Assembly: GCA_964625225.1 (NCBI GenBank)
Contig: CAZVAR010000004.1
Location: 353-64,352, forward strand
From: an uncultured Alphaproteobacteria bacterium
GTDB taxonomy: Bacteria; Pseudomonadota; Alphaproteobacteria; JAJUGE01
Direction: 5' to 3'
Length of the DNA stretch: 64,000 nt
The position numbers and the translations under genes are program-made. The notes under the pieces were generated by a model. The model saw only the letters and a list, made by a program, of their open reading frames with translations. It made no database searches and was not told the origin of the DNA. Of the stretch, positions 16,617-50,533 are shown in pieces. Numbering within the stretch: position 1 is the first letter of the stretch; the number at the start of each line of letters is the position of its first letter.

Positions 16617-18086
16617 ATGTCGAAATCGGATGAATTGATCCGTCTGTCGGCCTGTGAGGCGGTCGCACTTCTCGCCAAGGGGGAGGTGACTCCGCTCGAG
16701 CTGATCGATGCGGCCGCCGAGAGGATCGCTGCCGTGGAGCCGGCAGTCAACGCGCTGCCGACGCTGTGCATCGAGCGGGCGCGGGATCACGCCAAGCGGC
16801 TGATGGCGAGCAAGGATCCGCTCCAAGGAGGGGCACCGGGCTGGCTCGGCGGATTGCCGATCGCGATCAAAGACCTGATCGACGTTGCCGGGGTACGGAC
16901 CACCTACGGCTCCCCGATTTTCGCCGACCATGTCCCCGAGGTCTCGCACCCGCTGGTGCAGCGGTTGGAGCAGCGCGGCGGTATCGTCGTCGCCAAATCC
17001 AACACCCCGGAGTTCGGTGCGGGCGGCAATACATTCAACGAGGTGTTCGGGCGCACGCTCAATCCCTGGAACACCTCTTTGACCTGCGGTGGGTCCTCGG
17101 GCGGGGCGGCGGTGGCGCTGGCGACCGGCGAAGTGTGGCTGGCACATGGCTCGGATCATGGCGGGTCGCTGCGGAAGCCGGCCGCCTTCTGCTCGGTCGT
17201 GGGCCTACGACCCAGCCCGGGCATTGTGCCGCGCGGTACGGTCAACAACCTGTTCAGCCCCAGTTCGGTGCAGGGGCCGATGGCCCGCAACGTGCCGGAT
17301 CTCGCGCTGTTCTTGGACGCGATGGCCGGCCGGCATTCGAGCGACCCGCTGTCGCAGCCGGCGCCCGAACGCAGCTATCTCGACGCGGTCAGGGCTGCAT
17401 TGGGCGGGGAGAGCGGCGCGGCGCCGAAGCGCGTGGCCTGGACGCCGGATCTCGGCGGATTGGTGCCGGTGGCCGCGGAGACGAAGGCGATCTGCGCGGC
17501 GGCCGCCCGCCGCTTCGAGGAGTTGGGGGCGGTGGTCGAGGAGGCCAGTCCGGACTGCGGCCAGATCGGCGAGGCCTTCCAGATCTTGCGGGCGATGATC
17601 TTCGTCGTGGATCGGGCACCGCTGCTGGAGCGGCATCGCGACAAGATCAAGCCGGACATCATCTGGAACACGGAGAAGGGGCTGAAGCTGACGCCGGCCG
17701 AGATCGGCTGGGCGGAGCGCGAACGGGCGGCGTTCTATCGTCGGATCCTCACCTTCTTCGAAAGCTACGACCTGCTGCTCTGCCCCGTCGCCGTAACTCC
17801 GGCCTTCGACGTCAATCTGCGCTTCGTCGAGAGTGTCGACGGCAAGAAGTTCGACAATTATATCGCGCCGTCGCTACCGACCTCGGCGATCACCATGAGC
17901 GCCTGTCCGGCGATCAGCGTGCCGGCCGGTTTCGACCGGTTCGGCCGGCCCGTGGGCCTGCAGATCGTCGGGAAGCCCCGGGGGGAGGCTGGCCTGCTTC
18001 AGGCGGCCGCCCTGTTCGAGCGTCTGACCGGGCTCGATCGACTGCTGCCGATCGACCCGCGGCCGGGAACCGTTCCGGAGGAGTGA
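16617..18086 (+). CDS. Amidase-signature (AS) family amidase, copy 1
   Basis: The 489-aa protein has the AS motif GGSSGGAAVALATGE...GSDHGGSLRKPAAFC. A good SD (GGGGAAAGGGG) lies upstream of the ATG. Confidence 0.85.
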   Translation: MSKSDELIRLSACEAVALLAKGEVTPLELIDAAAERIAAVEPAVNALPTLCIERARDHAKRLMASKDPLQGGAPGWLGGLPIAIKDLIDVAGVRTTYGSPIFADHVPEVSHPLVQRLEQRGGIVVAKSNTPEFGAGGNTFNEVFGRTLNPWNTSLTCGGSSGGAAVALATGEVWLAHGSDHGGSLRKPAAFCSVVGLRPSPGIVPRGTVNNLFSPSSVQGPMARNVPDLALFLDAMAGRHSSDPLSQPAPERSYLDAVRAALGGESGAAPKRVAWTPDLGGLVPVAAETKAICAAAARRFEELGAVVEEASPDCGQIGEAFQILRAMIFVVDRAPLLERHRDKIKPDIIWNTEKGLKLTPAEIGWAERERAAFYRRILTFFESYDLLLCPVAVTPAFDVNLRFVESVDGKKFDNYIAPSLPTSAITMSACPAISVPAGFDRFGRPVGLQIVGKPRGEAGLLQAAALFERLTGLDRLLPIDPRPGTVPEE

Positions 18087-18125
18087 GCCGGCGGGGTACG
18101 AAAAATTGCACAGGGAGGGGCAGGG

Positions 18126-19568
18126 ATGGCGGACAATTCCGAACTGATTCGCCTGACCGCGCGCGCCGCGGTCGATCTGCTGAAGCGAAGAGAAGTGACG
18201 CCGACCGATCTGATCGACGCGGCGGTGGCGCGCATCGAGGCGGTCGACGGGCAGGTGAACGCTCTTCCGATCCGCTGCTACGAGCGGGCGCGCGAGCGCG
18301 CGCTGCGGCTGATGGGCGATAGCTCCGACGAAGTGGAGCGGGCGCATCCCGGCTGGCTGGCCGGGCTGCCGATCGCGATCAAGGATCTCATGGACGTGGC
18401 CGGTGTGCCGACGACCTACGGCTCGCCGGTCTATGCCGACAACGTCGCGAAACGGTCCGACGTGCTGGTGGAGCGATTGGAGCGACGGGGCGGGGTGGTG
18501 CTCGCCAAATCGAGCACGCCGGAATTCGGTTCGCTGCCGGTGACCTGGAACCCGCTGCATGGCCATACGCGTACGCCTTGGGACACGCGCCTGTCGGCCG
18601 GCGGCTCGTCGGGCGGTGCGGCGGCGGCCCTCGCCGCAGGCGAGGTGTGGCTTGCGCACGGTTCGGACATCGGCGGGTCCCTGCGGATTCCGGCAGCGTT
18701 CTGCGGCGTAGTCGGGTTGCGGCCGAGCTTCGGGCGGGTACCGCGAATGCCGTCCGGCCGCGCCTTCAACCCGATGGCGGTGCAGGGGCCGATGGCGCGC
18801 AACGTTGCCGACTGCGCCCTGTTTCTCGATGCGATGGCCGGCTATTGGGCCGGTGACCCGCTGACCCTGCCGGCACCGGAGCGGACTTACCTGGAGGCGG
18901 CGCTGCATCCGCGCCCGCCGAGGCGAGTCGGCTTCAGCCCGGACCTGGGCTGTGCGCGGGTCGATGCCGATGTGCAGGCGATCTGCGCCGCGGCAGCGCA
19001 GCGATTCGCCGAGGCGGGTGCCGTGGTCGAGGAGGCCGGACCGAACCTTTCGGGGTTCGAGCGCGCCTATGCGGTCTTGTTCCAGATGAGCTTGCTGCCC
19101 GATCGCGAGACCCTGGTGCGCGACCATCGCGATCGTACGTTCCCCGGGATCGTAGATGCGGTGGAGAGGGCGAAGCGGCTGACGGGCGACGACATCGCCC
19201 AGGCCGAGCGTGACCGGGCTGCGTTGTTCGCGCAGATGGCCACCTTCTTCGAGACTTACGACGTGCTGGTCACCCCGACGGTGACGACCCCGCCGTTCCC
19301 GGTCGAGCAGCGCGGGCCGGGGCCGCAGGAGCGGGTATCGCTGGAGTACGATTTCGATTGGATCGCGCCGTGCACGGCAACGGTGCTGACCGGCTGCCCG
19401 GCAATTGCGATCCCGGCCGGATTGACGCGCGACGGCCGGCCGGTCGGCCTTCAGATCATCGGCCGCCCCCGCGACGAAGCCGGCATCATCGAGGCGGCGG
19501 CGGTGCTCGAGCCGTTGCTGGGACTCTCCCAGCGCCTGCCCATCGAGCCGCAGATGGGGGCGGCCTGA
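18126..19568 (+). CDS. Amidase-signature family amidase, copy 2 (tandem paralog)
   Basis: The 480-aa protein carries GGSSGGAAAALAAGE...GSDIGGSLRIPAAFC. It is colinear with copy 1 from the N-terminus (SELIRLTARAAVDLLKRREVTP versus SELIRLSACEAVALLAKGEVTP). Confidence 0.85.
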   Translation: MADNSELIRLTARAAVDLLKRREVTPTDLIDAAVARIEAVDGQVNALPIRCYERARERALRLMGDSSDEVERAHPGWLAGLPIAIKDLMDVAGVPTTYGSPVYADNVAKRSDVLVERLERRGGVVLAKSSTPEFGSLPVTWNPLHGHTRTPWDTRLSAGGSSGGAAAALAAGEVWLAHGSDIGGSLRIPAAFCGVVGLRPSFGRVPRMPSGRAFNPMAVQGPMARNVADCALFLDAMAGYWAGDPLTLPAPERTYLEAALHPRPPRRVGFSPDLGCARVDADVQAICAAAAQRFAEAGAVVEEAGPNLSGFERAYAVLFQMSLLPDRETLVRDHRDRTFPGIVDAVERAKRLTGDDIAQAERDRAALFAQMATFFETYDVLVTPTVTTPPFPVEQRGPGPQERVSLEYDFDWIAPCTATVLTGCPAIAIPAGLTRDGRPVGLQIIGRPRDEAGIIEAAAVLEPLLGLSQRLPIEPQMGAA

Positions 19569-38627: not shown

Positions 38628-40034
38628 CTAGCCGGCGGACTGCGGTGCGGTGGCGCGGGGAATGAGGCGCATTCTTGTCCCTTCCTGCGGCCGCAACGTG
38701 ATCATCGGCTCCGGCTTCGGTTCGATGCCGTCCGGAAGGGTGAGGCGCCAGCGCTGCGCCACCATGGCTAGCATGATCTGCGCCTCCATCAGCGCAAACC
38801 GGTTACCGAGGCAGATCCGGGGGCCGCCACCGAACGGGAAATAGGCGTAGCGCGGCCGTTCGGCCTGCATTTCGGGCCGGAAGCGGTCCGGGTCGAACCG
38901 GTCCGGTTCGTGCCAGAAGCGGGGGTGGCGGTGCACGGCGTAGGGACAGAGCATGACCGTAGTGCCACGCGGGATCCGTGTGCCCGCAATCGTGTCTTCG
39001 GCGACGGCGGCCCGGGAGATGGTCCAGACGGGCGGGTAGATCCGCATGGCCTCTTCGAACACCATCCGTGTGTAGGGGAGCCGGCCGAGATCGGCGAAGT
39101 TTGGCGTGCGACCGCCGAGCACCTTGTCTACCTCACGATGCAGGCGTGCCTCCACCTCGGGATTGCGGGCCAGCAGGCAGAAGGTCCAGGCGAGGGCGCA
39201 GGCCGTGCTCTCGTGGCCGGCGGCGATCATCGATACCACCTGGTCGCGCAGGACCGCCTGGGCCCGCGGACCCTCCCGATCGGCCGCGGCAATCAGCGCG
39301 GACAGCAGATCCTCAGGCGGCCGGGCTTCCGCGCGGCGATCCCGGATCAGTCGTTCCACGATCGTGTCCACGGTCGCGAGCGCTTGCCGATATGAAGGGT
39401 CGAGCCGGCGCAGAAGCGGATCGGGGACGGGCATGAACGACCAGACCTGACGTTCGATCCGCCTGAGAATCTCGGTCAGCGCCGAATGCAGCGCGTCGTA
39501 TTCGCCGCTCAGGCGCACGCGGAACAGTGCGCGGGTCAGGGCATCGAGCGTGAGCCGCATCATCTCGGGCATCAATACGATGGTACCGTCCGTCGCTTTT
39601 CCGGAGCCTTGCCAGCGGTCGAGCATGTCGGAGGCGGCCCCGGCGATGTCCCGTGCCATGGCTTCGAAACGCAAGCCGCCGAAAAACGGATTGGCGGTTC
39701 GCCGTTGTGCCAGCCAGGTATTGCCCTCGCTGAGGAAGATGCCGCCGCCGAGGAGTGGCCTGAAGGCCCGGTAGAACCGGCTCTTCCGATAGTTCCGGTG
39801 ATTGTCCTGCAGCACATGCTTCACCGCGGCGGGATGGTTGATCATTACCACGGGTGCGGTGCCGATGGCGAACCGGACAACGTCGCCGTAGCGGAGCATC
39901 AGGTCGACGAAATACTGCAACGGGTCGCGTCGCAGCTCGAGCGCCACGCCGAGCAGCGGCAGACCGCGTGGCCCTCGCCGCGATGGCGCGCCCCGTGGCG
40001 CGCCCGCGGCGAGGGATGTTGAAGGGTCGGTCAT
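38628..40034 (-). CDS. Cytochrome P450 monooxygenase (CYP4/CYP102-like sequence style)
   Basis: The heme-thiolate loop is FPFGGGPRICLGNRFALMEAQ. The ExxR motif is EEAMRIYPP and the I-helix is ...MIAAGHESTA... The preferred start is the ATG at 40034, 10 nt after the stop of orf76. An ATG at 40058, overlapping orf76 by 14 nt, is also possible. No ferredoxin or reductase gene is adjacent. Confidence 0.88.
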   Translation of the reverse strand: MTDPSTSLAAGAPRGAPSRRGPRGLPLLGVALELRRDPLQYFVDLMLRYGDVVRFAIGTAPVVMINHPAAVKHVLQDNHRNYRKSRFYRAFRPLLGGGIFLSEGNTWLAQRRTANPFFGGLRFEAMARDIAGAASDMLDRWQGSGKATDGTIVLMPEMMRLTLDALTRALFRVRLSGEYDALHSALTEILRRIERQVWSFMPVPDPLLRRLDPSYRQALATVDTIVERLIRDRRAEARPPEDLLSALIAAADREGPRAQAVLRDQVVSMIAAGHESTACALAWTFCLLARNPEVEARLHREVDKVLGGRTPNFADLGRLPYTRMVFEEAMRIYPPVWTISRAAVAEDTIAGTRIPRGTTVMLCPYAVHRHPRFWHEPDRFDPDRFRPEMQAERPRYAYFPFGGGPRICLGNRFALMEAQIMLAMVAQRWRLTLPDGIEPKPEPMITLRPQEGTRMRLIPRATAPQSAG

Positions 40035-40044
40035 ACGGCCGGGT

Positions 40045-40275
40045 TCAGCGACTCCCATTGGCGCGCAGTGGCTCGCCGGCGTCGTATGTCGGACGGGCGT
40101 CCCTCGCGGCGCCGTCGCGCTCGATGATCTCGGAGGTCGCCGCGGCGGCCGCACCGATGAAGTGGGCCGGCAGCCGGAGGCCGGCGATCATCGCCTGCCG
40201 GTACAAATAGTCGAGACAGCCTTTCAGGGCCTGCGGCGTGCACACGATTTCGTCGAAACCGAACTGGTTGTTCAT
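40045..40275 (-). CDS. Small protein of unknown function (76 aa) between luxI and the P450
   Basis: The sequence is MNNQFGFDEIVCTPQALKGCLDYLYRQAMIAGLRLPAHFIGAAAAATSEIIERDGAARDARPTYDAGEPLRANGSR. A strong SD lies upstream (minus strand TTAGGAGATAC then ATG). Codons are G/C-ending like the neighbours. It starts 20 nt after the luxI stop. I recognised no family. Confidence 0.6.
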   Translation of the reverse strand: MNNQFGFDEIVCTPQALKGCLDYLYRQAMIAGLRLPAHFIGAAAAATSEIIERDGAARDARPTYDAGEPLRANGSR

Positions 40276-40295
40276 GAGTATCTCCTAAGGTTCTC

Positions 40296-40997
40296 TCAAG
40301 CCGCCTGTAGCTGCCGAGCGTGCACCTGCGGCGGCGGCGCGGTACGAAGCGGGGATCGACGGAGGGCCGGCGGTGGCTGGCGCAGCACCGGGCCTTCGAT
40401 GCCCCCTCGTTCCCGGATGCGCGCCAGCACCCGGTCGTCGATGTCGAAGCGGCCCGCCATGGCAATGGTGTTGCCGATCCGACGCGGCGCGCTGCGCCAG
40501 CGCGGCTCGCAGCCGATTCTCGGCAGCAGCCGCGCGATGCGGGCGTCGTAAACGGTGACGACCTCGTCGACGCCGTAGGCCATGCACAGCTCGACGACGG
40601 CACAGAAGATTTCGCTGGTGATCCGACTGAGGGCGGCGAGGCCGCTGCCGCCGATGTCGCCGTTGCGCCGGCCGGCATCCACCGCGAAGCGGCTGCCCTC
40701 CCAGATGCGGGGATGGCGTGGCGGAGGAGCGCCGTCCAGAAGTTCCGGGAAGACGTCTCGGAGCATGTACGGCCCGGTGGTGGGGAGCATCCGCCAGGTC
40801 CCGACCAGATGCTCATCGTCATCGAATGCCAGCAGGTAGATGGGATCCAGGCTATCGAAGCGGTCCCACTCGAATCCCTCCTCGACGTCGACGTCCCAGT
40901 CGAGACGGCCCTTGAACACGCGGCAGCGCAGCCGGTGCATCTCGAGGATATCGCGGCGCCGTGTCGCCCAGTCCGAATTGGTCAGACAATCGATCAT
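40296..40997 (-). CDS. luxI: LuxI-family acyl-homoserine-lactone synthase
   Basis: The ATG at 40997 gives MIDCLTNSDWATRRRDILEMHRLRCRVFKGRLDWDVDVEEGFEWDRFD...EGSRFAVD...IGNTIAMAGRF. These blocks align with my recollection of TraI/LuxI blocks (MHRLR..VF.GRL.WDV, E.D.YD, ESSRF.VD, IGNTIAIAG). The track ORF starts at a TTG at 41030. Confidence 0.9.
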   Translation of the reverse strand: MIDCLTNSDWATRRRDILEMHRLRCRVFKGRLDWDVDVEEGFEWDRFDSLDPIYLLAFDDDEHLVGTWRMLPTTGPYMLRDVFPELLDGAPPPRHPRIWEGSRFAVDAGRRNGDIGGSGLAALSRITSEIFCAVVELCMAYGVDEVVTVYDARIARLLPRIGCEPRWRSAPRRIGNTIAMAGRFDIDDRVLARIRERGGIEGPVLRQPPPALRRSPLRTAPPPQVHARQLQAA

Positions 40998-41001
40998 GGC
41001 C

Positions 41002-41048
41002 CCCTTCCCGATGCTTGCCTTCAGGGGCAATTTGCCGATCGGAAGGGG
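41002..41048. promoter_or_regulatory. Nested dyad symmetry immediately upstream of the luxI start; candidate LuxR box or SD-sequestering hairpin
   Basis: CCCTTCCCGAT (41002-41012) and ATCGGAAGGGG (41038-41048) are imperfect inverted repeats, matching 9 of 11 positions. They flank the perfect palindrome GGCAATTTGCC (41026-41036). On the luxI mRNA strand the 3' arm contains the GGGAAGGGGG Shine-Dalgarno region. Confidence 0.3.
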
Positions 41049-41114
41049 AATGGACAGCCCGCCAGAATTGGGGGTTGCCGGGTCGCCCGGCGGTAGCGCC
41101 CGGGCAGCGGGCCA

Positions 41115-41843
41115 TCAGGGCACGATGAGGCCGAGCAGGATCGCTTTCACCACCGCGTGTGTCTTGTTGTGAACACCCAGCTTGGAAGCCGCCGATTTGA
41201 GATAGTGTACGACCGTTTCCTGAGAGAGATTGAGAATCGTTGCGACTTCCCAGGCGGTCTTGCCGCGGGCCGACCACAGCAGGCACTCGCGCTCGCGCGG
41301 CGCGAGCTGGGGCAGCTTCCGTCCAGCACTCGCCAGCGTCCGCTCGAGCACGGCCTCGTGGCTGTAGATCGCGATGAGATGGAGGGCGTGTCGAAATTCG
41401 GGCCACCGTGCGCGGAAGCCGTCGGGTGGTACGCGGGCGGCGACGTTCAGCGTGGCGAGGCCACGCCCTGGCCCATGCACCGGGACCGTGATGCCGCATC
41501 GGAGCCCGAACTCGCTTGCCTCCGCGATCATCCGGCGCTGCGGTCCATTGGCCGGTAGGGTCCGCTGCAGGCTCTCCCAGGTGAAAGGGGTGAGCGTGCG
41601 CGAGGCAGCCGGCATTACAGGATCGATGTTGACATAGTCGTTGGCGACATAGTGCTCGGTCCAGCCTTCGGGATAACTGCCGAAATAGATGGGCTCGTGC
41701 GGGCTGTCCGGAGCGTGCAGGACGAGATACGCGAAGCGGTCGAATCCCAAGCCGGTAATCTCGCGCTCGATCAGTGCGGACACGGACGGGGCATCGGGCG
41801 CCGCCTGCAAGTCGCGGATGAAGTCTTCCAGCCGATCGAGCAT
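41115..41843 (-). CDS. luxR: LuxR-family AHL-responsive transcriptional regulator
   Basis: The N-terminal autoinducer-binding domain carries the conserved W..Y...DP and W positions (GWTEHYVANDYVNIDPV, TPFTWESL). The C-terminal HTH is LAPRERECLLWSARGKTAWEVATILNLSQETVVHYLKSAASKLGVHNKTHAV. Confidence 0.9.
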   Translation of the reverse strand: MLDRLEDFIRDLQAAPDAPSVSALIEREITGLGFDRFAYLVLHAPDSPHEPIYFGSYPEGWTEHYVANDYVNIDPVMPAASRTLTPFTWESLQRTLPANGPQRRMIAEASEFGLRCGITVPVHGPGRGLATLNVAARVPPDGFRARWPEFRHALHLIAIYSHEAVLERTLASAGRKLPQLAPRERECLLWSARGKTAWEVATILNLSQETVVHYLKSAASKLGVHNKTHAVVKAILLGLIVP

Positions 41844-42182: not shown

Positions 42183-42686
42183 ATGTACCGAAGGCTCGCG
42201 CTGATGTTGCTCATGGTCGGCGCGGGCCTTGCGGGACCGCTGCCGGCTGCCGCGACCATTCTCATTAAGGTCCAGCCGGATGGCGGTGTCTTGGTGCTGG
42301 CTGGTGACGGGTCGGAACGTGTCATTCCTGCCGACGCCGTCTCGGCACTCGAGCTGGGTCTGCTCGGACAGGAGGATCCCGCGGCCGTGGAAGCGACGGT
42401 TGCCGAGGTCGTCCAGGCCTGGACGGAAAGCGACCCGGTCCTTGCGACCGCGATCGCCGCGTACGCGCTGACACTGGTGCCGGAGGGGCTCGGAACTGCG
42501 GTCATCGCCGGCGCGCAGGCGGGGAATCCGGAGGCCGCCGGGGCGATCGCGGTTGCGGTGGGGCCGGCGCGGAGCGGTAGCTCTAGCGGGGTTTGGGGCG
42601 GCGCGGCCGGCAGCATCCATCTCGGGATCGGCGGGATCGGTGGGAATACCGCCGAGGTTCAGAACGCCAGCCCGACGACGCTCTGA
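42183..42686 (+). CDS. Secreted Ala/Gly-rich hypothetical protein
   Basis: The signal peptide is MYRRLALMLLMVGAGLAGPLPAAAT. There is an SD-like AAGGG upstream, and coding-like codon usage. It is the first gene on the plus strand after the luxR divergent region. I recognised no family. Confidence 0.55.
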   Translation: MYRRLALMLLMVGAGLAGPLPAAATILIKVQPDGGVLVLAGDGSERVIPADAVSALELGLLGQEDPAAVEATVAEVVQAWTESDPVLATAIAAYALTLVPEGLGTAVIAGAQAGNPEAAGAIAVAVGPARSGSSSGVWGGAAGSIHLGIGGIGGNTAEVQNASPTTL

Positions 42687-42757
42687 GCCGGCAGCGGGGC
42701 GCCCGCTCCGGAGGATGGGGCATCGGCCCAGGCAACAGCGACGTTTTCGGGGGGCCA

Positions 42758-44017
42758 ATGCAACAGTCGACAGTGAGCTTCGCTGCAGCGCTCGCCGCAG
42801 GGGCGGCCGTCTTCACTTGGCCTCAAGCCGTCGGGGCCCGGGAGGAGGACCGCAAGGAAACGGTGATGAGCCGCCCGCGGCCCGAGGTCGATCCGCTGGG
42901 TATCCGTCTCGGGTCGTTCTTGCTCTACCCGGCACTGACCCTCGGGATCGAGTTTGACGACAACATCTATCGGAACGACGAGGACCGTGATGCCGACCTG
43001 ATCGGCCGTATCGTCCCGCGCGCCCGGCTTGTCTCGGACTGGAACGACCACGCGCTGGAACTGGCCGGGTATCTGGACGTCGGCGAGTATTTCTGGAACC
43101 CGAGCGAGAATTTCGTCGATGGGGCGATCGGCGCCGCCGGGCGCATCGACCTGACCGGGGCGACCGGGATTCTTGCCGGCGCCCAGTACGAGGCTCTGCA
43201 CGAGGACCGCGGCAGCCCCGATGCCCGCGCCGGCACGGAGCCGACCGAGTTTCAGCGCATAAGCGCCAATCTCGGTGTCTCACACCGCTTCAGCCGCCTT
43301 TCGGTACTGGCAGAGGCGCGCTATGTCGGCCTCGACTTCAACGATACCGAGACCGCAGCGGGCGTCATCAACAATGACGACCGTGATCGCGACATCTATC
43401 TCTTCGCTGCCCGTGCCGGGTTCGAGTTCCTACCCCAGAACGAGGCCTTTGCCCGGATCGTCTACAACGTCCGCGACTATGACGCGTCGCTCGACGATTT
43501 CGGCCTGGACCGGGACTCGGAAGGCTACGAGATCGTCGTCGGCACTCAGTTCGATCTCACCGGCATTACTTACGGGGAAGTCTTCGTCGGCTATCGCGAG
43601 CAGCGCTATGACGATCGGGCGCTCGGGACGATCGACGGGCTTACCTTCGGTGCGAGGTTAACCTCCAACGTTACCCAACTGACCACGGTGCAGCTCCTTG
43701 TTGATCGCGAGATCGAGGAGACCAGCATCGCCGCCGCCGAGGGCTATTGGACAACCGCGGTTCGCGCGACGGTCGACCATGAACTGCTGCGGAACCTCAT
43801 CCTGTCGGGCAGCGTGGGATACACATGGAACGAATACAAAGGAATCGGCCGCGACGACGGCACCTTCCGCGTCACCGTGGGGGCTGACTGCCTGGTGAAC
43901 CGCCTGATTACGGTGGGAGGCTCGTACGACTTCGAGCGCCGCAAGTCGAACGGTGCTGCCGCGGGGGTCGATTATACGTCCAACCGGGTGTTGCTGAAGA
44001 TCACCGGCCATTTTTGA
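42758..44017 (+). CDS. Outer-membrane beta-barrel protein of polysaccharide loci (putative beta-barrel porin-2-like)
   Basis: The ATG at 42758 gives MQQSTVSFAAALAAGAAVFTWPQAVGA, a signal peptide. It is followed by LGIRLGSFLLYPALTLGIEFDDNIYRN...LVSDWNDHALEL..., with alternating-hydrophobic strands and a C-terminal aromatic residue (…LLKITGHF). Confidence 0.65.
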   Translation: MQQSTVSFAAALAAGAAVFTWPQAVGAREEDRKETVMSRPRPEVDPLGIRLGSFLLYPALTLGIEFDDNIYRNDEDRDADLIGRIVPRARLVSDWNDHALELAGYLDVGEYFWNPSENFVDGAIGAAGRIDLTGATGILAGAQYEALHEDRGSPDARAGTEPTEFQRISANLGVSHRFSRLSVLAEARYVGLDFNDTETAAGVINNDDRDRDIYLFAARAGFEFLPQNEAFARIVYNVRDYDASLDDFGLDRDSEGYEIVVGTQFDLTGITYGEVFVGYREQRYDDRALGTIDGLTFGARLTSNVTQLTTVQLLVDREIEETSIAAAEGYWTTAVRATVDHELLRNLILSGSVGYTWNEYKGIGRDDGTFRVTVGADCLVNRLITVGGSYDFERRKSNGAAAGVDYTSNRVLLKITGHF

Positions 44018-44049
44018 GCGGCGGGCGAACCGCGGAAGGAGGGGTCCGA

Positions 44050-44577
44050 ATGTCCAAGCTCTTGTCGCTGTTCGTCGTCCTGACGCTGTCTGCGTTCTCC
44101 TGGGTACCATATTCGGAATCGGCCGGTCGTGTGGAGTACAGGCTCGGGCCACAGGACAAGATCCAGGTCACGGTGTTCAACGAGCCCGATCTCTCGGGCG
44201 AATTCGAACTGGACGGCGAGGGGCGTGTCGCCCTGCCGCTGATCGGCGATGTCACTGTAGGCGGGATGACCGTTCGCAATGCCGAACAGACCATCGCCGC
44301 GGAGCTGTATCCCGATTATCTGCAGAACCCGAAAGTCAGCATCCAGGTCACGAACTACCGGCCGTTCTACATTCTTGGCGAAGTCAAGGAACCGGGCGGC
44401 TACCCTTATGCCAACGACATGACGGTTATACAGGCGGTGGCGCTTGCCGGCGGGTTTACCTATCGCGCTCGTCAAAGCCGGATGGTGATCGTCCGGGCCG
44501 GTACGCGTACGCAGGCGAAGCCCGACACCGCAGTGCTCCCAGGCGACATTATCGAGGTTCCGGAACGCTTTTTCTGA
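44050..44577 (+). CDS. Polysaccharide export protein (Wza/ExoF-like periplasmic Poly_export plus SLBB)
   Basis: The sequence is MSKLLSLFVVLTLSAFS...YRLGPQDKIQVTVFNEPDLSGEFELDGEGRVALPLIGDVTVGGMTVRNAEQTIA...V.V.NYRPFYILGEVKEPGGYPY....TVIQAVALAGGFT.... Confidence 0.85.
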   Translation: MSKLLSLFVVLTLSAFSWVPYSESAGRVEYRLGPQDKIQVTVFNEPDLSGEFELDGEGRVALPLIGDVTVGGMTVRNAEQTIAAELYPDYLQNPKVSIQVTNYRPFYILGEVKEPGGYPYANDMTVIQAVALAGGFTYRARQSRMVIVRAGTRTQAKPDTAVLPGDIIEVPERFF

Positions 44578-44634
44578 GCAAGGGGTCGGCGGTGGTGCGG
44601 CAGCGGTACGCCGGCGCGAGCGGAAGGTGATGAC

Positions 44635-46845
44635 TTGAAGGACGCCAGCATCACAGAGCCGCCCCGGGTCTCCGGCCACACGGGGCTCCGGCCGCCGTCG
44701 GGCATTTCCGGCGAGGTCGATCTGCGTGAGGCATTGGCCGTGCTGTGGCGACGCAGGGGAACGGTCGCCGGGGTCACCGTGCTGATCACGTTGCTCGCCG
44801 CCGTGATCGTGTTCCAGATAACGCCGCTCTATCGGGCCGAGACCCAGATCATGATCGAGGCGCGGCAGAACCGGGTCGTGGATGTCGAGGAAGTTCTGTC
44901 CGGTTTGAGCAGCGAGCGCGAGACGATCGAGAGCGAGCGCCGCGTGATCGCCTCGCGCGCGCTTGCCGAGAAGGTGATCGCTGCTTTGGAGTTGAACCGC
45001 GACCCCGAGTTCAATCCGGCCCTGCGTGAGACGGATCGGTTACGAGCGCTGCTGCGAACGGAGGCGCCGAAGACACCCGAACAAGCGCTCGAGACCGAGC
45101 GTGCGCGGACCGTCGACACCTTCCTCGACCGGCTCGACGTGACACCGGAGGGTCGCTCCCGCGTGATTACGATCGCCTTCGCTTCCGAACGGCCGGGGAT
45201 GGCGGCACGGATCGCGAATACGGTGGCGGAACTGTACCTCTTACAGCAGCGCGAGGCCAAGTTTGAGGCGACCCGACGCGCCACGGAATGGCTGTACGAG
45301 CGGACCGCGGATCTGCGCGAGACAGTCAAGGCCTCGGAGGATGCCGTCGAGGCGTTCCGACGCGAGGCGGGGCTGATCGAGGGCAAAGGCTTTACCCTCG
45401 CGTCGCAGCAGGTTTCCGAGCTGAACACTCAGCTCATCCTGGCTCGCACCACGCGCGCCGAAGCGGAAGCACGGCTCCATCAGGTTCGGGCGCTCCTCGC
45501 CGGCGAGGGCGGCATCGACTCGGCTGCTGAAGTGATCGCATCGCCGCTGATCCAGCGCCTGAAGGAGCAGGAAGCGGAGGTGATGCGACGGGCGGCGGAA
45601 CTGGCCACCCAGTACGGCCCGAAGCATCCCCGCATGATCAATGTCCAGGCGGAGCTGGAGGACATCGAGGCGAAGATCGGGGCAGAGGTCCAGAAGATCG
45701 TCCAGAGCCTGCGCAATGAGGCGGCCGTGGCCCGGGCACGCGAGGCGTCGCTGAACGCCAGCCTCGGCGCGCTCGAGCGGAACGTCGGGCGCGCGAACAG
45801 CGACGAGGTGCGGTTGCGCGCCCTGGAGCGGGAGGCCAGCGCCAACCGCCGACTCTTCGAGACCTTCCTCTCGCGGCTGAAAGAGACCACGGCGCAGGAG
45901 GATCTGCACCTGCCTGATGCACGGATCATCTCGCGCGCCGACATTCCCGACACCCCGGCCTTTCCCCGCACCAAGCTGATGCTGGCCGGTGCCATGTTCA
46001 GCGCTCTCATTGCCGGAATCGCCGCGGCCTTTCTCCTGGAGCGGCTCGACCCGGGTTTCCGGAGTTCCGACCAGATCGAACGGCAGCTCGGTGTCGCCGG
46101 ACTCGGGCTGATCCCTCTGATGAGCGGGGGCCGATCCGACGATCGCACGCCGCAAAGCTACGTACTCCAACGTCCCGCCTCCGCCTTCGCGGAATCGTTA
46201 CGGACGCTTCATACGGCCCTGCTGCTGTCGAATGTCGATCGCCCGCCGAGGAGCGTGCTGGTGACGTCTTCGGTGCCGCAGGAAGGAAAGAGCACGGTCG
46301 CTCTGTCCCTGGCCCGCCTCATGGCGAAATCCGGGCGCAAGGTCCTGTTGATCGATGCCGATTTGCGGCGACCGCGGATCGCCGAGGTCCTGCGAATACC
46401 GGAAAGACCCGGCCTGGTCGACGTGCTGGCGCGATCCGTGTCCTGGTTAGAGGCGGTTCAGCATGATGCCGCCGCCGGACTCGATGTCCTGACCACCGGG
46501 GAATCGGCGGTCAGCCCGCCCGATCTGTTCGGCTCGGCGCAAATGCGGGTGCTGATGGCGGAGCTCGCCGCTTACTACGACCTGGTGGTGGTGGATTCCC
46601 CGCCGGTGCTGGCGGTCTCGGAGCCGCGCATCCTCGCGTGCCTCGTCGACACGACCGTGTTCGTGATCCGCTGGGCGAAGACGCCGCGCGAGGTTGCCGG
46701 CCTCGGACTGAAGCAGATCCGGGAATCGGGCGGCAGCCTCGCGGGCGCAGTGCTCTCGATGGTCAACGTTCGTGAGCACGCCCGCTACGGCTACGGCGAC
46801 TCGGGGCGCTATTACGGTCCGGCCTGTCGCTACTATACCGATTAG
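44635..46845 (+). CDS. Polysaccharide co-polymerase / chain-length determinant with C-terminal BY-kinase-like ATPase (ExoP/GumC/Wzc family)
   Basis: The start is TTG. It has a Wzz-type N-terminus with a TM segment (VTVLITLLAAVIVF) and then a long coiled-coil periplasmic region. A second TM segment follows, then a Walker A-like VTSSVPQEGKSTVALSLA and ...VVVDSPPVL... It ends in a Tyr-containing tail (RYGYGDSGRYYGPACRYYTD). Confidence 0.85.
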   Translation: MKDASITEPPRVSGHTGLRPPSGISGEVDLREALAVLWRRRGTVAGVTVLITLLAAVIVFQITPLYRAETQIMIEARQNRVVDVEEVLSGLSSERETIESERRVIASRALAEKVIAALELNRDPEFNPALRETDRLRALLRTEAPKTPEQALETERARTVDTFLDRLDVTPEGRSRVITIAFASERPGMAARIANTVAELYLLQQREAKFEATRRATEWLYERTADLRETVKASEDAVEAFRREAGLIEGKGFTLASQQVSELNTQLILARTTRAEAEARLHQVRALLAGEGGIDSAAEVIASPLIQRLKEQEAEVMRRAAELATQYGPKHPRMINVQAELEDIEAKIGAEVQKIVQSLRNEAAVARAREASLNASLGALERNVGRANSDEVRLRALEREASANRRLFETFLSRLKETTAQEDLHLPDARIISRADIPDTPAFPRTKLMLAGAMFSALIAGIAAAFLLERLDPGFRSSDQIERQLGVAGLGLIPLMSGGRSDDRTPQSYVLQRPASAFAESLRTLHTALLLSNVDRPPRSVLVTSSVPQEGKSTVALSLARLMAKSGRKVLLIDADLRRPRIAEVLRIPERPGLVDVLARSVSWLEAVQHDAAAGLDVLTTGESAVSPPDLFGSAQMRVLMAELAAYYDLVVVDSPPVLAVSEPRILACLVDTTVFVIRWAKTPREVAGLGLKQIRESGGSLAGAVLSMVNVREHARYGYGDSGRYYGPACRYYTD

Positions 46846-46851
46846 CCCCTC

Positions 46852-47544
46852 GTGAACCGGAGACCGGATCAGGGGCTCGGCGCCACCATCATCGCGGCGG
46901 TCCTGTTGGCCGCGCTGGGCGCGGGCCTGACCCTGGCGGCGGCGCCCCGGGTTGTCGGCTCGCTGGTCGCACTGCCCGGTGACGGGATACTCGCACGCAT
47001 CCGCGACCGCAAACCGGTCACGGTGGATGATCTCCGGCGACTGACGTCGTCCCGCGAGGCCGCGCTCGCCTGGCACGAAACCGGCCGGCGTCATGCGGAC
47101 TTGGCGCTGGCGCGGCTTATGCTCCTGGAACGGCGCCGGATCGTCCGGACCGACCGCGATCTGCCGGAGATCCGTGCCAGCCTGCGCCGCGGCCTCATGC
47201 TGACGCCCGCCGACGCCTATGGCTGGACGCGCCTTGCCGGAGTGGAGCGCCTGCTTGCGACCGGGGCGCAGGCCGGTCTCCGGGAGGTCGAAATGGCGAT
47301 TCTCACCGGCCCCTACGAGCGGCCGCTCGCCTTTCCGCGGCTCGCCATTGCGCTGTCGCTGCGGTCCGTGGCGCGTCCAGACACCCGCATCCTCATCGAT
47401 CGGCAGATCCGCTGGGCCTGGCGCGCCGACCGTTGGGCCACCGTTGCGGCAGCCCGGCATACGCAGGCATTCGATGCGGTGCGGGCCGCGCTTTACGGAG
47501 CACCCCGAGACCTGGCGACCTTCCGGGCGATGACAGCGGAATGA
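46852..47544 (+). CDS. Hypothetical single-pass membrane protein in the polysaccharide locus
   Basis: A GTG start lies 7 nt after the exoP-like stop. It has an N-terminal TM segment (GATIIAAVLLAALGAGLTLAAA) and then a helical soluble domain. I recognised no family. Confidence 0.5.
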   Translation: MNRRPDQGLGATIIAAVLLAALGAGLTLAAAPRVVGSLVALPGDGILARIRDRKPVTVDDLRRLTSSREAALAWHETGRRHADLALARLMLLERRRIVRTDRDLPEIRASLRRGLMLTPADAYGWTRLAGVERLLATGAQAGLREVEMAILTGPYERPLAFPRLAIALSLRSVARPDTRILIDRQIRWAWRADRWATVAAARHTQAFDAVRAALYGAPRDLATFRAMTAE

Positions 47545-47553
47545 GCAACCGCC

Positions 47554-49035
47554 TCACCGTGATGTGTCGTCGTTCTTGCTCCAGGACTGCGCGCAGGCGG
47601 CGCCCATGAGGAGCGCGTAGACCGCCGCCACGGCCGGGATCTGCAGGCTGAAGTCGACCAGCGCATGAAGCCCGACCAGCGTGGTCGCGGCGAGCCCGAG
47701 GCACGGGTAGGTGAGGTTCCGCCGCCGGCGCAGGATGCCCGCAGTGCAGATCGCGGCCGGTGCGGCCAGTGCGACGAACAGCAAGCCGGCCGCTGGCAGC
47801 CCGAGTTCGAGCACGTTCTCGAGATAGCTGTTATGGGCCTGCAGGAACGGCGCGTGCAGGTCGGGTGTGCGATAGAGCCTGAACGTGTCCGGGAAGCTGC
47901 CGAATCCGGTGCCGAGGAGCGGGGCGTCCCCGATCGCCGTCAGCACCCGCTCGAACAGCCGAAGGCGGACGGTCGCATCGTCGGCCGAGTGCAGCACGCG
48001 CAGTAGGACGTCCGGGCTCCCGGGAAGAGCAAGCCCCAGCAGCAGGACTACGATCAGCGCGACGATGCCGACGGCGCGCCGCGCGGACACGGCGCCGGCA
48101 CAGACATGCGACCCGACCAGGACGCAGAGGCCGACCAGCGTGCTGGCAATGCCGGCGCGGGAGTGCGATAGGATCAGTGCCGTTCCAATCACGAACAGCG
48201 CGGCGACATAGCCGAGTCCCCGGGTCGTGACATACTCACCGACGCGCCGGCAGCGGTCATGGAGCGGCAGGCGGCGGGGTGCGGCATGACGGATGCCGCG
48301 CCAAACTAGGGCGGCCGCGCAAAGCAGCCCGAGGCCTGCAAAGGTCGCGAAGGTGTTGCGGTTGACGAATGTACCCGTGAGGTCGCCGAGATAGGCGGTC
48401 TTGGGAGACCAGAGGATCATATCGGTCCCGCGCAGATAGGCGATGATCCCGTAGGCGGCGTATCCGGTCACCGCGAAGGCTGTGGCCTGTACGGCCCGGT
48501 AGGCCCGCCGCGGCTCCCGGCAGAGGTTGAGGGCCAGATAGAAGACCGCTGCATAGGTCGTTAGGCGGACCACGGCGTCGACGGTTTCGGTCGGGTTGAG
48601 CGAGATCGCACCCGGCAGCTCGACCCCGAGCGATCCGGCGGCCTTGCCCCAGATCGGGTGGTGCCATGCCGTCGGAGTGACCGGGAGGGCCTGGATCGCC
48701 GCCCATCCCATCGCCAGGGCGAGGCAGCCGAGCGGTAGCCGGATCCGCTCGAGCGCTACCGGGGCCCGATGTCCGCGGGCGAGCTGCCATGCCCAGGCCA
48801 CCAGCAGCATCCCGATGATCATCGCCATCGCGCCCCATGCCCAGGGCTGCACGGCGCCGAGCATCAGCGGTGCGAGCAGTACGGTGCCCAGGAGCAGGGT
48901 AAAGACGGGAGCAGCGTAAAAATCCGCGGCTGCGGCGGGCGTCGTGTCGACGATCGGCCGGCCGCCTCCGTCGCCTCCGGCACGGCCGTGCGGGCGGCGC
49001 CGCTCAATAGGCGTCACGTGCCGCGAGGACGACAC
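47554..49035 (-). CDS. O-antigen ligase / Wzy-type polymerase family membrane protein
   Basis: The 493-aa polytopic membrane protein has a Wzy_C-like central block (…ALILSHSRAGIASTLVGL…). The GTG start is uncertain. It overlaps the end of the upstream sugar-transferase gene by 32 nt. Confidence 0.7.
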   Translation of the reverse strand: MSSSRHVTPIERRRPHGRAGGDGGGRPIVDTTPAAAADFYAAPVFTLLLGTVLLAPLMLGAVQPWAWGAMAMIIGMLLVAWAWQLARGHRAPVALERIRLPLGCLALAMGWAAIQALPVTPTAWHHPIWGKAAGSLGVELPGAISLNPTETVDAVVRLTTYAAVFYLALNLCREPRRAYRAVQATAFAVTGYAAYGIIAYLRGTDMILWSPKTAYLGDLTGTFVNRNTFATFAGLGLLCAAALVWRGIRHAAPRRLPLHDRCRRVGEYVTTRGLGYVAALFVIGTALILSHSRAGIASTLVGLCVLVGSHVCAGAVSARRAVGIVALIVVLLLGLALPGSPDVLLRVLHSADDATVRLRLFERVLTAIGDAPLLGTGFGSFPDTFRLYRTPDLHAPFLQAHNSYLENVLELGLPAAGLLFVALAAPAAICTAGILRRRRNLTYPCLGLAATTLVGLHALVDFSLQIPAVAAVYALLMGAACAQSWSKNDDTSR

Positions 49036-50533
49036 GCGCGGTCTCGTACAGGATGTAGAGGTCGAAACTCACCGACCAGTTGCGGATGTAGTAGACGTCC
49101 ATTTCGAGGCGTTCGGCGAAGGTCGTGCGGTTCCGCCCCGACACCTGCCAGTAGCCGGTGATGCCCGGCTTCACGCTGTGGATGACCTGCTCGTTTCCGC
49201 CCATGTCGGCAATCTCCTGCGGCAGGTAGCACCGGGGGCCGACCAGGCTCATCTCGCCCTTGATGACGTTGAGGAGCTGCGGCAGCTCGTCCAGGCTGTA
49301 GCGGCGCAGGATGCGGCCGAGCGGCGTCACCCGCGGGTCGTGCCGGAGCTTCTTGTAGACCGCGTATTCGGTGCGCGCCGCAGGGTTGTCCCGCAGATAG
49401 GCGGCAAGCCGCGCCTCCGCGTCCACGACCATCGTCCGGAACTTGTAGGCACCATAGGTGCGCCCGTGCTGCCCCAAGCGCTGCTGCACGAAGAAGGCGG
49501 GACCGGGCGAGGTCAAACGGATGAGCAGCGCGATCGCGGCGAAAAGAGGCAGCAGGCTGAGCAGGAGCGGTACTGCGAGGCAGACATCCATTACCCGCTT
49601 GATCGCCAGTTTCCGACGATCGAGCAGATTGTCCGCCATGGAGAGCGCCAGGGTCCCCTGGAGATCACGGGTCTGCACCCAGAGCGTGCGGCGCCCGTTC
49701 ATTGCCGGCACCAGGAAGACGTGGGGAAATTTCAGCCGGTTGATCACCGCTTCCCACTGATCGGGGGGCAGGTGCGGAAGGTAGACGAAAACGTGCCGGG
49801 CGCCCCGGAGGCGGCCGGTGGTCCCCGCGGCCTGCATCACGACCGGGACGCCGGCTATCGTTTGGCCCTGTTCTTCCGGAGCGTCGCTGAGACAGGCGAC
49901 GGGTATGAAGCCCAGTTCCTGGCGTCGGCGGAGCAGTCTGATCAGTTGTTCCGCGGATTCGCCGATTCCGTGGACCGCGACCGGCACGCCCCAGCGTCCG
50001 TGCGCCTGCAATCGATGGCGGACGATATCGTTGAAGAAGACCGTCAGAACGAGGGCGAAGCCGCAGGACAGCACGGTCACGAGCCGCGACCATAGCCCGT
50101 GCTGGAGCAGATAGTCCCAGCCGGCGACCAGCGCGAATACGAGGACGACGCCGAGCAGGCGGCGCCGGAACCGGTCAGGCGCGCTCATCCCGTAGCCCGG
50201 ATATAGGCCGAGTGCGGCATTGATGCAGACGATTGCGGTGCCGGCGAAGATCAGCACCTCGTGCTCGAAACTGGCGGCCTTTTCGAAGAGGTCGCCGAAG
50301 ATCCAGCGAAGACAGGAGCTGGTGATGATCGCGATCGTGACGGCGAGCACGTCGGCAGCCGCCATCACCGCTCCGGCAACCCCGGGTCGTAGAAATCTCG
50401 GCGGTCTATCGGCGGGCGCCGATACCCTGGACGCGGTTGCGGTGTCAAACATCGACGGAAATTCTTCGGACAGAAGCGAACGCGCGTGCAGCAAGCCGCG
50501 ATCGGGAGCGTTAGGCGATCGGGCTGTAGCCAT
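49004..50533 (-). CDS. Polyprenyl-phosphate glycosyl-1-phosphate transferase (WbaP/exopolysaccharide priming enzyme, Bac_transf domain)
   Basis: The C-terminal domain is KRVMDVCLAVPLLLSLLPLFAAIALLIRLTSPGPAFFVQQRLG..G..Y.AYKFRTM...A......................DPRVTPLGR.LR..SLDELPQLLNV..GEMSLVGPR. The N-terminal region has multiple TM segments. An ATG at 50452 is an alternative start. Confidence 0.88.
   Translation of the reverse strand: MATARSPNAPDRGLLHARSLLSEEFPSMFDTATASRVSAPADRPPRFLRPGVAGAVMAAADVLAVTIAIITSSCLRWIFGDLFEKAASFEHEVLIFAGTAIVCINAALGLYPGYGMSAPDRFRRRLLGVVLVFALVAGWDYLLQHGLWSRLVTVLSCGFALVLTVFFNDIVRHRLQAHGRWGVPVAVHGIGESAEQLIRLLRRRQELGFIPVACLSDAPEEQGQTIAGVPVVMQAAGTTGRLRGARHVFVYLPHLPPDQWEAVINRLKFPHVFLVPAMNGRRTLWVQTRDLQGTLALSMADNLLDRRKLAIKRVMDVCLAVPLLLSLLPLFAAIALLIRLTSPGPAFFVQQRLGQHGRTYGAYKFRTMVVDAEARLAAYLRDNPAARTEYAVYKKLRHDPRVTPLGRILRRYSLDELPQLLNVIKGEMSLVGPRCYLPQEIADMGGNEQVIHSVKPGITGYWQVSGRNRTTFAERLEMDVYYIRNWSVSFDLYILYETARVVLAARDAY

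Follow-up and report, generated by a model that had tools for sequence, protein, structure and literature searches.

Why should the gene for an acyl-homoserine lactone (AHL) synthase be followed, at operon spacing, by the gene for a cytochrome P450? The question is raised by a locus of an uncultured alphaproteobacterium (contig CAZVAR010000004.1), of which one stretch of 64 kb, hereafter called the window, was analysed. The locus holds a luxR-type receptor gene, a luxI-type synthase gene, a small open reading frame (ORF) that we call orf76, and the P450 gene. At least 13 lineages of Alphaproteobacteria have the order luxR-luxI-small ORF-P450, among them the cultured species Pelagibius marinus (L063), and from the sequence evidence we consider it highly probable that the four genes are a functionally coupled, co-expressed unit. 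By analogy with related enzymes, some action of the P450 on the AHL, or on its acyl chain, is likely.

The operon and its signalling genes

A previous sequence-only reading had described four minus-strand genes in this part of the window. Re-reading of the ORFs placed all of them, and the gaps between them, exactly where they had been reported. luxR (41115..41843) codes for a LuxR-type AHL receptor and transcription factor of 242 aa, assigned by Pfam and alignments. After 117 nt follows luxI (40296..40997; 233 aa), the AHL synthase gene according to Pfam and the putative first gene of the operon. A gap of 20 nt separates it from orf76 (40045..40275; 76 aa, a predicted two-helix hairpin), and another of 10 nt separates orf76 from the P450 gene (38628..40034; 468 aa), the last of the operon. 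The strong Shine-Dalgarno sequence ascribed to orf76 is present as AGGAG (40282..40286, minus strand), read from the sequence 6 nt 5' of the ATG. The window is chromosomal and encodes IleRS, LspA, MutL, SpoT, PdxJ and LepB; an Rfam search of its entire length gave no match.

Two start codons allow a choice. For luxI, a longer ORF from a TTG at 41030 is possible; the ATG at 40997 matches the homologues and the gene call on the identical contigs L034 and L035. For the P450, the ATG at 40034 sits 10 nt past the orf76 stop codon, and an alternative ATG at 40058, the start annotated on the identical public contigs, gives 476 aa and lies within the end of orf76, so that the two genes would share 14 nt. 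As neither of the two has a good Shine-Dalgarno sequence, translational coupling to orf76 is suggested, and either start would imply that this coupling is tight.

That luxI, orf76 and the P450 gene form a single operon, as had been proposed, is supported by several features. The spacing leaves too little room for a promoter, a consensus scan of the interval from luxI to the P450 gene gave no promoter-like or terminator-like site, and both the order and the tight spacing are kept in 13 lineages. We infer that the three genes are probably carried on one transcript.

LuxI and LuxR were said to have the hallmarks of their families, and Pfam matches and conserved residues in alignments agree. LuxI matches Autoind_synth (PF00765) with an E-value of 1.1e-45 (155.9 bits versus a cut-off of 24) and the NCBIfam TraI-type synthase with 2e-46, which is under the equivalog cut-off. 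The catalytic residues are present (N-terminal Arg/Phe/Trp, the acidic pair, Arg68 and Glu101-Ser-Arg104), and the motifs RLRCRVF, LDW, EWDRFD, WRMLPTT and WEGSRFAV align with LasI and TofI. The best solved relative is LasI (2.6e-30), and the coenzyme A (CoA)-type synthases RpaI and BjaI reach 1e-16 to 1e-17. Judged by these matches, the window LuxI is closer to LasI, an acyl-acyl carrier protein (acyl-ACP) enzyme, than to the CoA-dependent RpaI/BjaI systems, which offer a precedent for unusual acyl donors. Homologues at least 50% identical to the window LuxI fall into more than 100 clusters. A forecast of 3-oxo substitution from the position of LasI Thr144 was dropped as unreliable: TofI also has Thr at this place, but makes an AHL without a substitution.

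LuxR has both the autoinducer-binding domain (Autoind_bind, PF03472; 2.1e-35) and the GerE helix-turn-helix domain (PF00196; 2.9e-15) by which a receptor of this type is recognised. When aligned with RhlR, TraR and LasR, it has the canonical ligand-contact residues in YPEGW..Y..DP, FTW and GLRCG. The stretches YPEGWTEHYVANDYVNIDP, FTWES and GLRCGITVP cover TraR Y53, W57, Y61, D70, P71, W85 and G113. As these residues contact the AHL, the ligand should keep the homoserine-lactone amide head group.

Upstream of luxI we noticed a feature absent from the earlier description, a conserved candidate for a lux-box-like operator. It is the imperfect palindrome CCCCCAATTCTGGCGGG (41058..41074, minus strand), 61-77 nt upstream of the luxI ATG. 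Nothing else in the window matches the degenerate search pattern exactly; two further matches at 3 mismatches are at chance level. Exact pattern matches lie upstream of luxI in three lineages, and palindromic variants such as CCCCCAGTTCTGGGGG (Pelagibius), CCCCCCGATTTCGGGGG and CCCGCAAGAANTGGNGGG were found 58-62 nt upstream of luxI in L057, L058, L060, L063 and L065. Altogether, 8 lineages have a 17-nt palindrome at a constant distance of ~60 nt from luxI, and no second copy was found ahead of orf76 or the P450 gene. The palindrome is a putative lux box of one autoinduced promoter.

The LasI/LasR, TraI/TraR and RhlR circuits resemble the locus in their synthase and receptor hallmarks and in having a palindrome upstream of the synthase gene. 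To our knowledge, no synthase gene of a canonical LuxI/LuxR circuit shares an operon with an oxygenase gene. In those circuits, signal diversity comes from the acyl donor picked by the synthase and not from a dedicated tailoring enzyme.

Recurrence of the cassette and the orf76 family

The sequence-only reading had left room for an adjacency unique to this strain, that is, an accident. A gene-neighbourhood survey showed instead that 13 lineages share the cassette. Four independent lines of sequence evidence indicate that the adjacency is beyond chance: the loci of orf76 homologues, the loci of P450 homologues, a distant member of the orf76 family, and phylogeny together with co-variation.

Loci of orf76 homologues: These are luxR-luxI-orf-P450 cassettes whose flanks differ. 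The cassettes of L021-L028 are flanked by RF-1/DUF1045 and norCBQD; those of L029-L033, by genes for polysaccharide export and a PAS histidine kinase. Over the 13 lineages as a whole, malate synthase, F420 genes, OmpA/ABC and a molybdopterin dehydrogenase are also among the flanks.

Loci of P450 homologues: The three closest homologues (60, 53 and 51% identity; species genomes of the Genome Taxonomy Database) all have luxI and a small ORF directly upstream. Seven more (46-58% identity), checked one by one, are all in the cassette with new flanks, and one of them is Pelagibius marinus. No luxI plus small ORF accompanies 17 remoter homologues (37-47%; Stellaceae, Methylocapsa, Pyrinomonadaceae, Dictyobacter and others). 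A pattern scan of metagenomes gave just distant unlinked homologues and one known lineage.

Distant orf76 member: P0152, a remote member of the orf76 family (profile E = 7e-7), is again located in a four-gene cassette.

Phylogeny and co-variation: All luxI-linked P450s form one clade in a neighbour-joining tree, and at ~30 loci with P450s outside that clade no luxI was found within 5-6 kb. A hidden Markov model (HMM) of orf76 matches 13 of the 13 cassette lineages and none of the unlinked P450 loci. Pairwise identities co-vary for LuxI and P450 (r = 0.71) and for LuxR and P450 (r = 0.91), and in a Mantel test 0 of 5000 permutations reached these values.

That the luxI-P450 adjacency is accidental and the small ORF not a gene is refuted by the 13 lineages, the monophyly of the linked P450s and a conserved small-protein family of coding-like composition; no support for it was found, and its probability is close to nil. 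The conserved cassette, the co-variation and the monophyly argue for a unit inherited as a block, and the cassette has apparently also moved as a block.

Some relatives have mobile elements at the cassette. DDE transposases lie between luxR and luxI in L002 (3529-4875) and L059 (3726-5033), and a phage integrase lies beside a truncated luxR in L062 (3190-4716). Some copies of the cassette seem to be mobile or in decay.

The small ORF had been overlooked as a component in its own right. Judged by its conservation across the lineages, orf76 is a real gene and a conserved, obligatory third component of the cassette. Its GC content at third codon positions is 0.84, like that of the neighbouring genes, and its homologues fall into 10 clusters at 63-81% identity. 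A profile search of 1.84 billion representatives extended the family to about 48 clusters (counted at 50% identity), with members 57-135 aa long. The core motif TP..L..CL.YLY..A..A.L.LPAHFIGAA.EA reads, in the family alignment, TP..L..CL.YLY.EA...G..LPAH(F/L)IG(A/V)AAEA, after which the tail varies. The AlphaFold2 model is a hairpin of two helices, 14-31 and 37-60, with moderate confidence (predicted local distance difference test score, pLDDT, 67). No Pfam, NCBIfam or Protein Data Bank (PDB) sequence match was obtained: the PDB profile search gave a best E of 0.34, to an unrelated protein, and Foldseek a best E of 1.9. On the sequence searches and the model, orf76 founds a new family of predicted small helical proteins. 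An acyl carrier protein or a ferredoxin was rejected: the family members have no Ser or Cys-cluster motif in common, and L002 and L063 do not keep the Cys residues.

Two family members, P0138 and P0174, are tandem duplications of the helical domain with almost no tail past the second copy, which suggests that the hairpin pairs with itself. These proteins also bear on another reading of the small ORF, by which orf76 would be the precursor of a ribosomally synthesised and post-translationally modified peptide (RiPP), with a conserved leader and a variable C-terminal core that the P450 cross-links or oxidises to a quorum sensing (QS)-regulated peptide. P450-modified RiPPs are encoded in this way, with a small ORF directly ahead of a P450 gene, the third match of the P450 in NCBIfam is the RiPP P450 ApyO (9e-47, far under the cut-off), and the N-terminal and central parts of orf76 are conserved while the tail varies, with eight close homologues finishing in RAVGDW. 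However, the window orf76 finishes in RANGSR, the tails of distant members are unrelated or very short and have no conserved aromatic residue, and the almost tailless duplications point to a folded domain rather than a leader. As the core cassette also keeps no protease or exporter, we regard a RiPP precursor as very improbable.

A member from outside the P450 cassettes was found in L064 (JGI Ga0070694_100034889, 302-2968). This contig has a luxR homologue, a half lux box (CCCCCCAATTCGGGTAGC), an orf76-family protein of 131 aa, one of the two tandem duplications, and a Rieske/LigXa_C oxygenase. There is no luxI between luxR and the oxygenase gene; the contig is only 3.3 kb long, so that luxI could be elsewhere. 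The arrangement suggests that the orf76 family goes with a QS receptor and an oxygenase, and not specifically with a P450 or LuxI. The family would thus pair QS receptors with oxygenases of two unrelated superfamilies.

The anti-activators TraM and QslA/QteE are likewise small all-helical proteins of QS loci, and the orf76 homologue of L064 directly follows luxR. TraM is a helical-hairpin dimer. On the other hand, no sequence or fold homology between orf76 and TraM or QslA was detected by the PDB profile search or Foldseek, and TraM does not precede an oxygenase, whereas orf76 always does. The small protein may be either an accessory or adaptor of the oxygenase or a TraM-like modulator of LuxR.

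The P450 and its possible role in the signal

The P450 matches Pfam PF00067 at 1.7e-92 (311 bits), so that the family assignments made earlier for this protein, LuxI and LuxR all stand on Pfam searches. The haem-binding loop FPFGGGPRICLG (38805..38840, minus strand), read from the sequence with Cys408 as the thiolate ligand, is accompanied by the ExxR motif EEAMR and the acid-alcohol pair of the I-helix, AGHEST. In an alignment of 40 P450 sequences, F401, G404, C408, G273-H274-E275 (I-helix) and E328/R331 (ExxR) are invariant. By this comparison, the catalytic motifs are all intact. The AlphaFold2 model has a pLDDT of 90.6.

The sequence-only reading had called the enzyme one of CYP102A1 style. 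This held in part: CYP102A1 (BM3) belongs to the same broad eukaryote-like class and is among the structural matches, but the likeness does not go further. The top Foldseek match is CYP184A1 of Streptomyces avermitilis (PDB 7wzl and 7wzm, free and oleic-acid-bound) with 35% identity and a template modelling (TM) score of 0.85-0.89. Lower matches are CYP97, CYP3A4, the alkane/fatty-acid omega-hydroxylase CYP4B1 and BM3 (21-23% identity). The sequence E-values are 1.4e-78 to CYP184A1 versus ~5e-40 to BM3. With >40% identity as the convention for a family, the protein is outside CYP102 (21-23%, from structural alignments) and also outside CYP184 (35%). It consists of the P450 domain alone (468 aa) and has no fused diflavin reductase domain. 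In contrast, CYP102A1 is fused to its own reductase and is a quencher in an organism without AHL signalling, whereas the window P450 is a stand-alone enzyme in an AHL synthase operon.

According to Kim et al. 2022, as cited in PMC11214959, CYP184A1 is a fatty-acid epoxidase with a long narrow pocket that binds oleic acid. As the nearest structure binds oleic acid, a long-chain acyl substrate gains independent support. The fatty-acyl assignment therefore survives by analogy, on a basis other than likeness to CYP102A1. CYP184A1 is the closest solved structure, but it is an actinomycete enzyme with no QS context and less than 40% identity.

A 19-bp GC-rich hairpin (window 39972-40015) starts 18 nt inside the P450 coding region, with a predicted -59.6 kcal/mol for a 111-nt segment (z = -3.1). 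It might damp translation of the P450. The hairpin is not kept in four other cassette lineages and is probably specific to this genome. Hence, it was not counted as part of the system.

From the substrate class and the operon context, we rate it an even call, and the most likely of the functions considered, that the P450 gives a tailored signal or precursor by oxidising the acyl chain, either in the LuxI product or in the precursor of that product. In such a system, LuxR would bind an AHL, as its canonical binding residues suggest, and the LuxR-AHL complex would switch on a promoter at the palindrome, which lies ~60 nt ahead of luxI. A single mRNA, predicted from spacing and conservation, would yield the AHL synthase, the two-helix small protein and a soluble P450 of the fatty-acyl type. 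Electrons for the P450 would come from housekeeping ferredoxin/flavodoxin systems encoded elsewhere. The P450 would then hydroxylate or epoxidise the long acyl chain, on either the finished AHL or an acyl-thioester precursor; the P450 BioI oxidises a carrier-bound (acyl-ACP) acyl chain. In favour of this chemistry, CYP102A1 is an established case of a P450 that oxidises C12-C20 AHLs, and a P450 has been proposed as the source of poly-hydroxylated AHLs in a marine alphaproteobacterium. The organism's own signal would be an oxidised AHL beyond the usual 3-oxo/3-hydroxy series, which is the least certain step. We hold more tentatively, and rather doubt than expect, that a long-chain AHL distally hydroxylated or epoxidised by the operon P450 is the true cognate LuxR ligand and that orf76 is a new small adaptor coupling QS components to P450 and Rieske oxygenases.

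Several observations weigh against tailoring. No redox partner had been noticed near the P450 gene, and our scans agree: a motif scan of every coding-like ORF in the window gave no motif of a ferredoxin, a flavodoxin or a Rieske protein, and Pfam scans of 30 window ORFs gave no redox partner. The substrate assignment is drawn from a relative of 35% identity, in a P450 group that includes terpenoid oxidases and carotenoid and sterol hydroxylases. In L064, a small protein and an oxygenase occur without an adjacent synthase, which is as compatible with an enzyme for external signals, or with a simple QS output, as with tailoring. Finally, the sole established reaction of a P450 with AHLs lowers signal activity: CYP102A1 of Priestia/Bacillus megaterium hydroxylates C12-C20 AHLs and fatty acids at sub-terminal carbons, from omega-1 to omega-3 (PMC3355433).

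This last reaction is the model for a built-in turnover, in which the P450 would turn the cell's own AHL into a less active product. Each induction of the luxI operon would then bring inactivation of the signal with it, which could provide negative feedback, set a threshold or clear toxic long-chain AHLs. An enzyme acting on finished or foreign signals could be expected to occur as in L064, with the small protein and oxygenase after luxR and no luxI between them. All linkage evidence (P450 clade, co-variation and presence of orf76) fits turnover equally well as tailoring. However, it would be wasteful to co-translate a synthase and a destroyer of its product stoichiometrically, and we know of no precedent for such a pair inside a luxI operon.

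Accessory genes of the relatives also bear on the choice. In the divergent lineages L002 (7319-10156) and Pelagibius marinus L063 (7431-10202), a major facilitator superfamily (MFS) transporter gene and a long-chain acyl-CoA-ligase-like gene follow the P450 gene, and the two ligase-like genes are orthologous (41% identical). A PhyH-family dioxygenase gene lies between luxR and luxI in L003 (3939-4826) and L061 (3967-4863). The P450 gene is followed by one for a HlyD-type membrane fusion protein (MFP) in L003 (7401-8480) and by MFP and MFS transporter genes in L061 (7437-10091). Neither the window nor most lineages have the acyl-CoA-ligase gene, and the PhyH and efflux genes are likewise absent from the window. 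Where present, these genes suggest that acyl chains are processed and exported rather than broken down. As the ligase-like genes and efflux pumps downstream look like biosynthesis and export, we consider turnover improbable.

The third use of the P450 would be an output unrelated to the signal, with orf76 and the P450 gene as the first QS target genes and another lipid, oxylipin or terpenoid as the substrate, possibly giving a second diffusible molecule. The best NCBIfam matches of the P450, CYP170A1 and PtlI, are sesquiterpene oxidases, far under the cut-off. The pairing of an orf76 homologue with a Rieske oxygenase in L064, with no luxI between that homologue and luxR, is in line with such an output, and so are the sister-clade P450s beside AMP-ligase, MarC and SnoaL genes without QS genes. 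Against it stands the link to luxI, which has been kept through 40-89% P450 divergence and at least 10 genomic contexts with no other pathway gene co-travelling. Moreover, the conserved core has no terpene synthase or other substrate-supplying gene. Hence, we think an unrelated output unlikely.

The sister-clade P450s come from Stellaceae (44-46% identity; L007:3612-7860, L009:3525-7859 and L041:1095-6860) and have no luxI. Their conserved gene group comprises a short-chain-type AMP-ligase, the P450 and a MarC-family membrane protein, with an extra DsbA-like gene in L009 and probably in L041. The Stellaceae AMP-ligase was not used as evidence, as it belongs to an acetate/MbcS-like subfamily with 31% identity to the L002/L063 ligase.

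Neighbouring genes, literature and meaning for AHL signalling

Divergent from luxR, the window has an exopolysaccharide export and assembly cluster (42183-50533). It encodes a 167-aa uncharacterised protein, a BBP2_2 outer-membrane protein, Poly_export, a Wzz/GNVR tyrosine-kinase-type protein, Wzy_C and Bac_transf, and the L029 lineage has matching exopolysaccharide neighbours. The cluster may be a QS target; no second copy of the lux box was found. Unrelated to the cassette, the plus strand carries a pair of neighbouring amidase-family genes (489 and 480 aa) at 16617-19568, upstream of a MaoC dehydratase gene.

The statement that no luxI-P450 operon had been characterised agrees with the searchable full-text literature, which describes none, subscription-only papers aside. 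On AHL tailoring by a P450 in a luxI operon, this literature gave nothing beyond quenching by CYP102A1, P450s listed in antiSMASH 'hserlactone' regions, and the marine alphaproteobacterium strain MOLA 401. In that strain, poly-hydroxylated AHLs were detected and a P450, speculative and unlinked, was proposed as their source (PMC5479921). Two apparent matches did not bear on the question, as in one of them P450 was the name of a primer and the other concerned an unlinked gene, and nothing was found on signalling in Pelagibius. The parts thus belong to known families (LuxI, LuxR and P450), and their combination appears new to the searchable literature and adds a new family of small proteins and a P450 clade specific to luxI.

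AHL diversity is currently attributed to the choice of acyl-ACP or acyl-CoA by the synthase. If the P450 tailors the signal, a second, post-assembly layer of AHL diversification would be added, with AHL structures that standard biosensors and targeted liquid chromatography-mass spectrometry lists may miss. If a distally oxidised AHL is the LuxR ligand, it would be a new class of AHL signal, spread over Kiloniellales-like Alphaproteobacteria. If the P450 inactivates the signal, the cassette would be a self-contained synthase-quencher feedback circuit. As the cultured Pelagibius marinus carries the cassette, the question can be tested directly. Whichever role proves right, three things come with the cassette: a luxI-specific clade of P450s, a new small-protein family tied to QS loci and oxygenases, and a candidate operator sequence.

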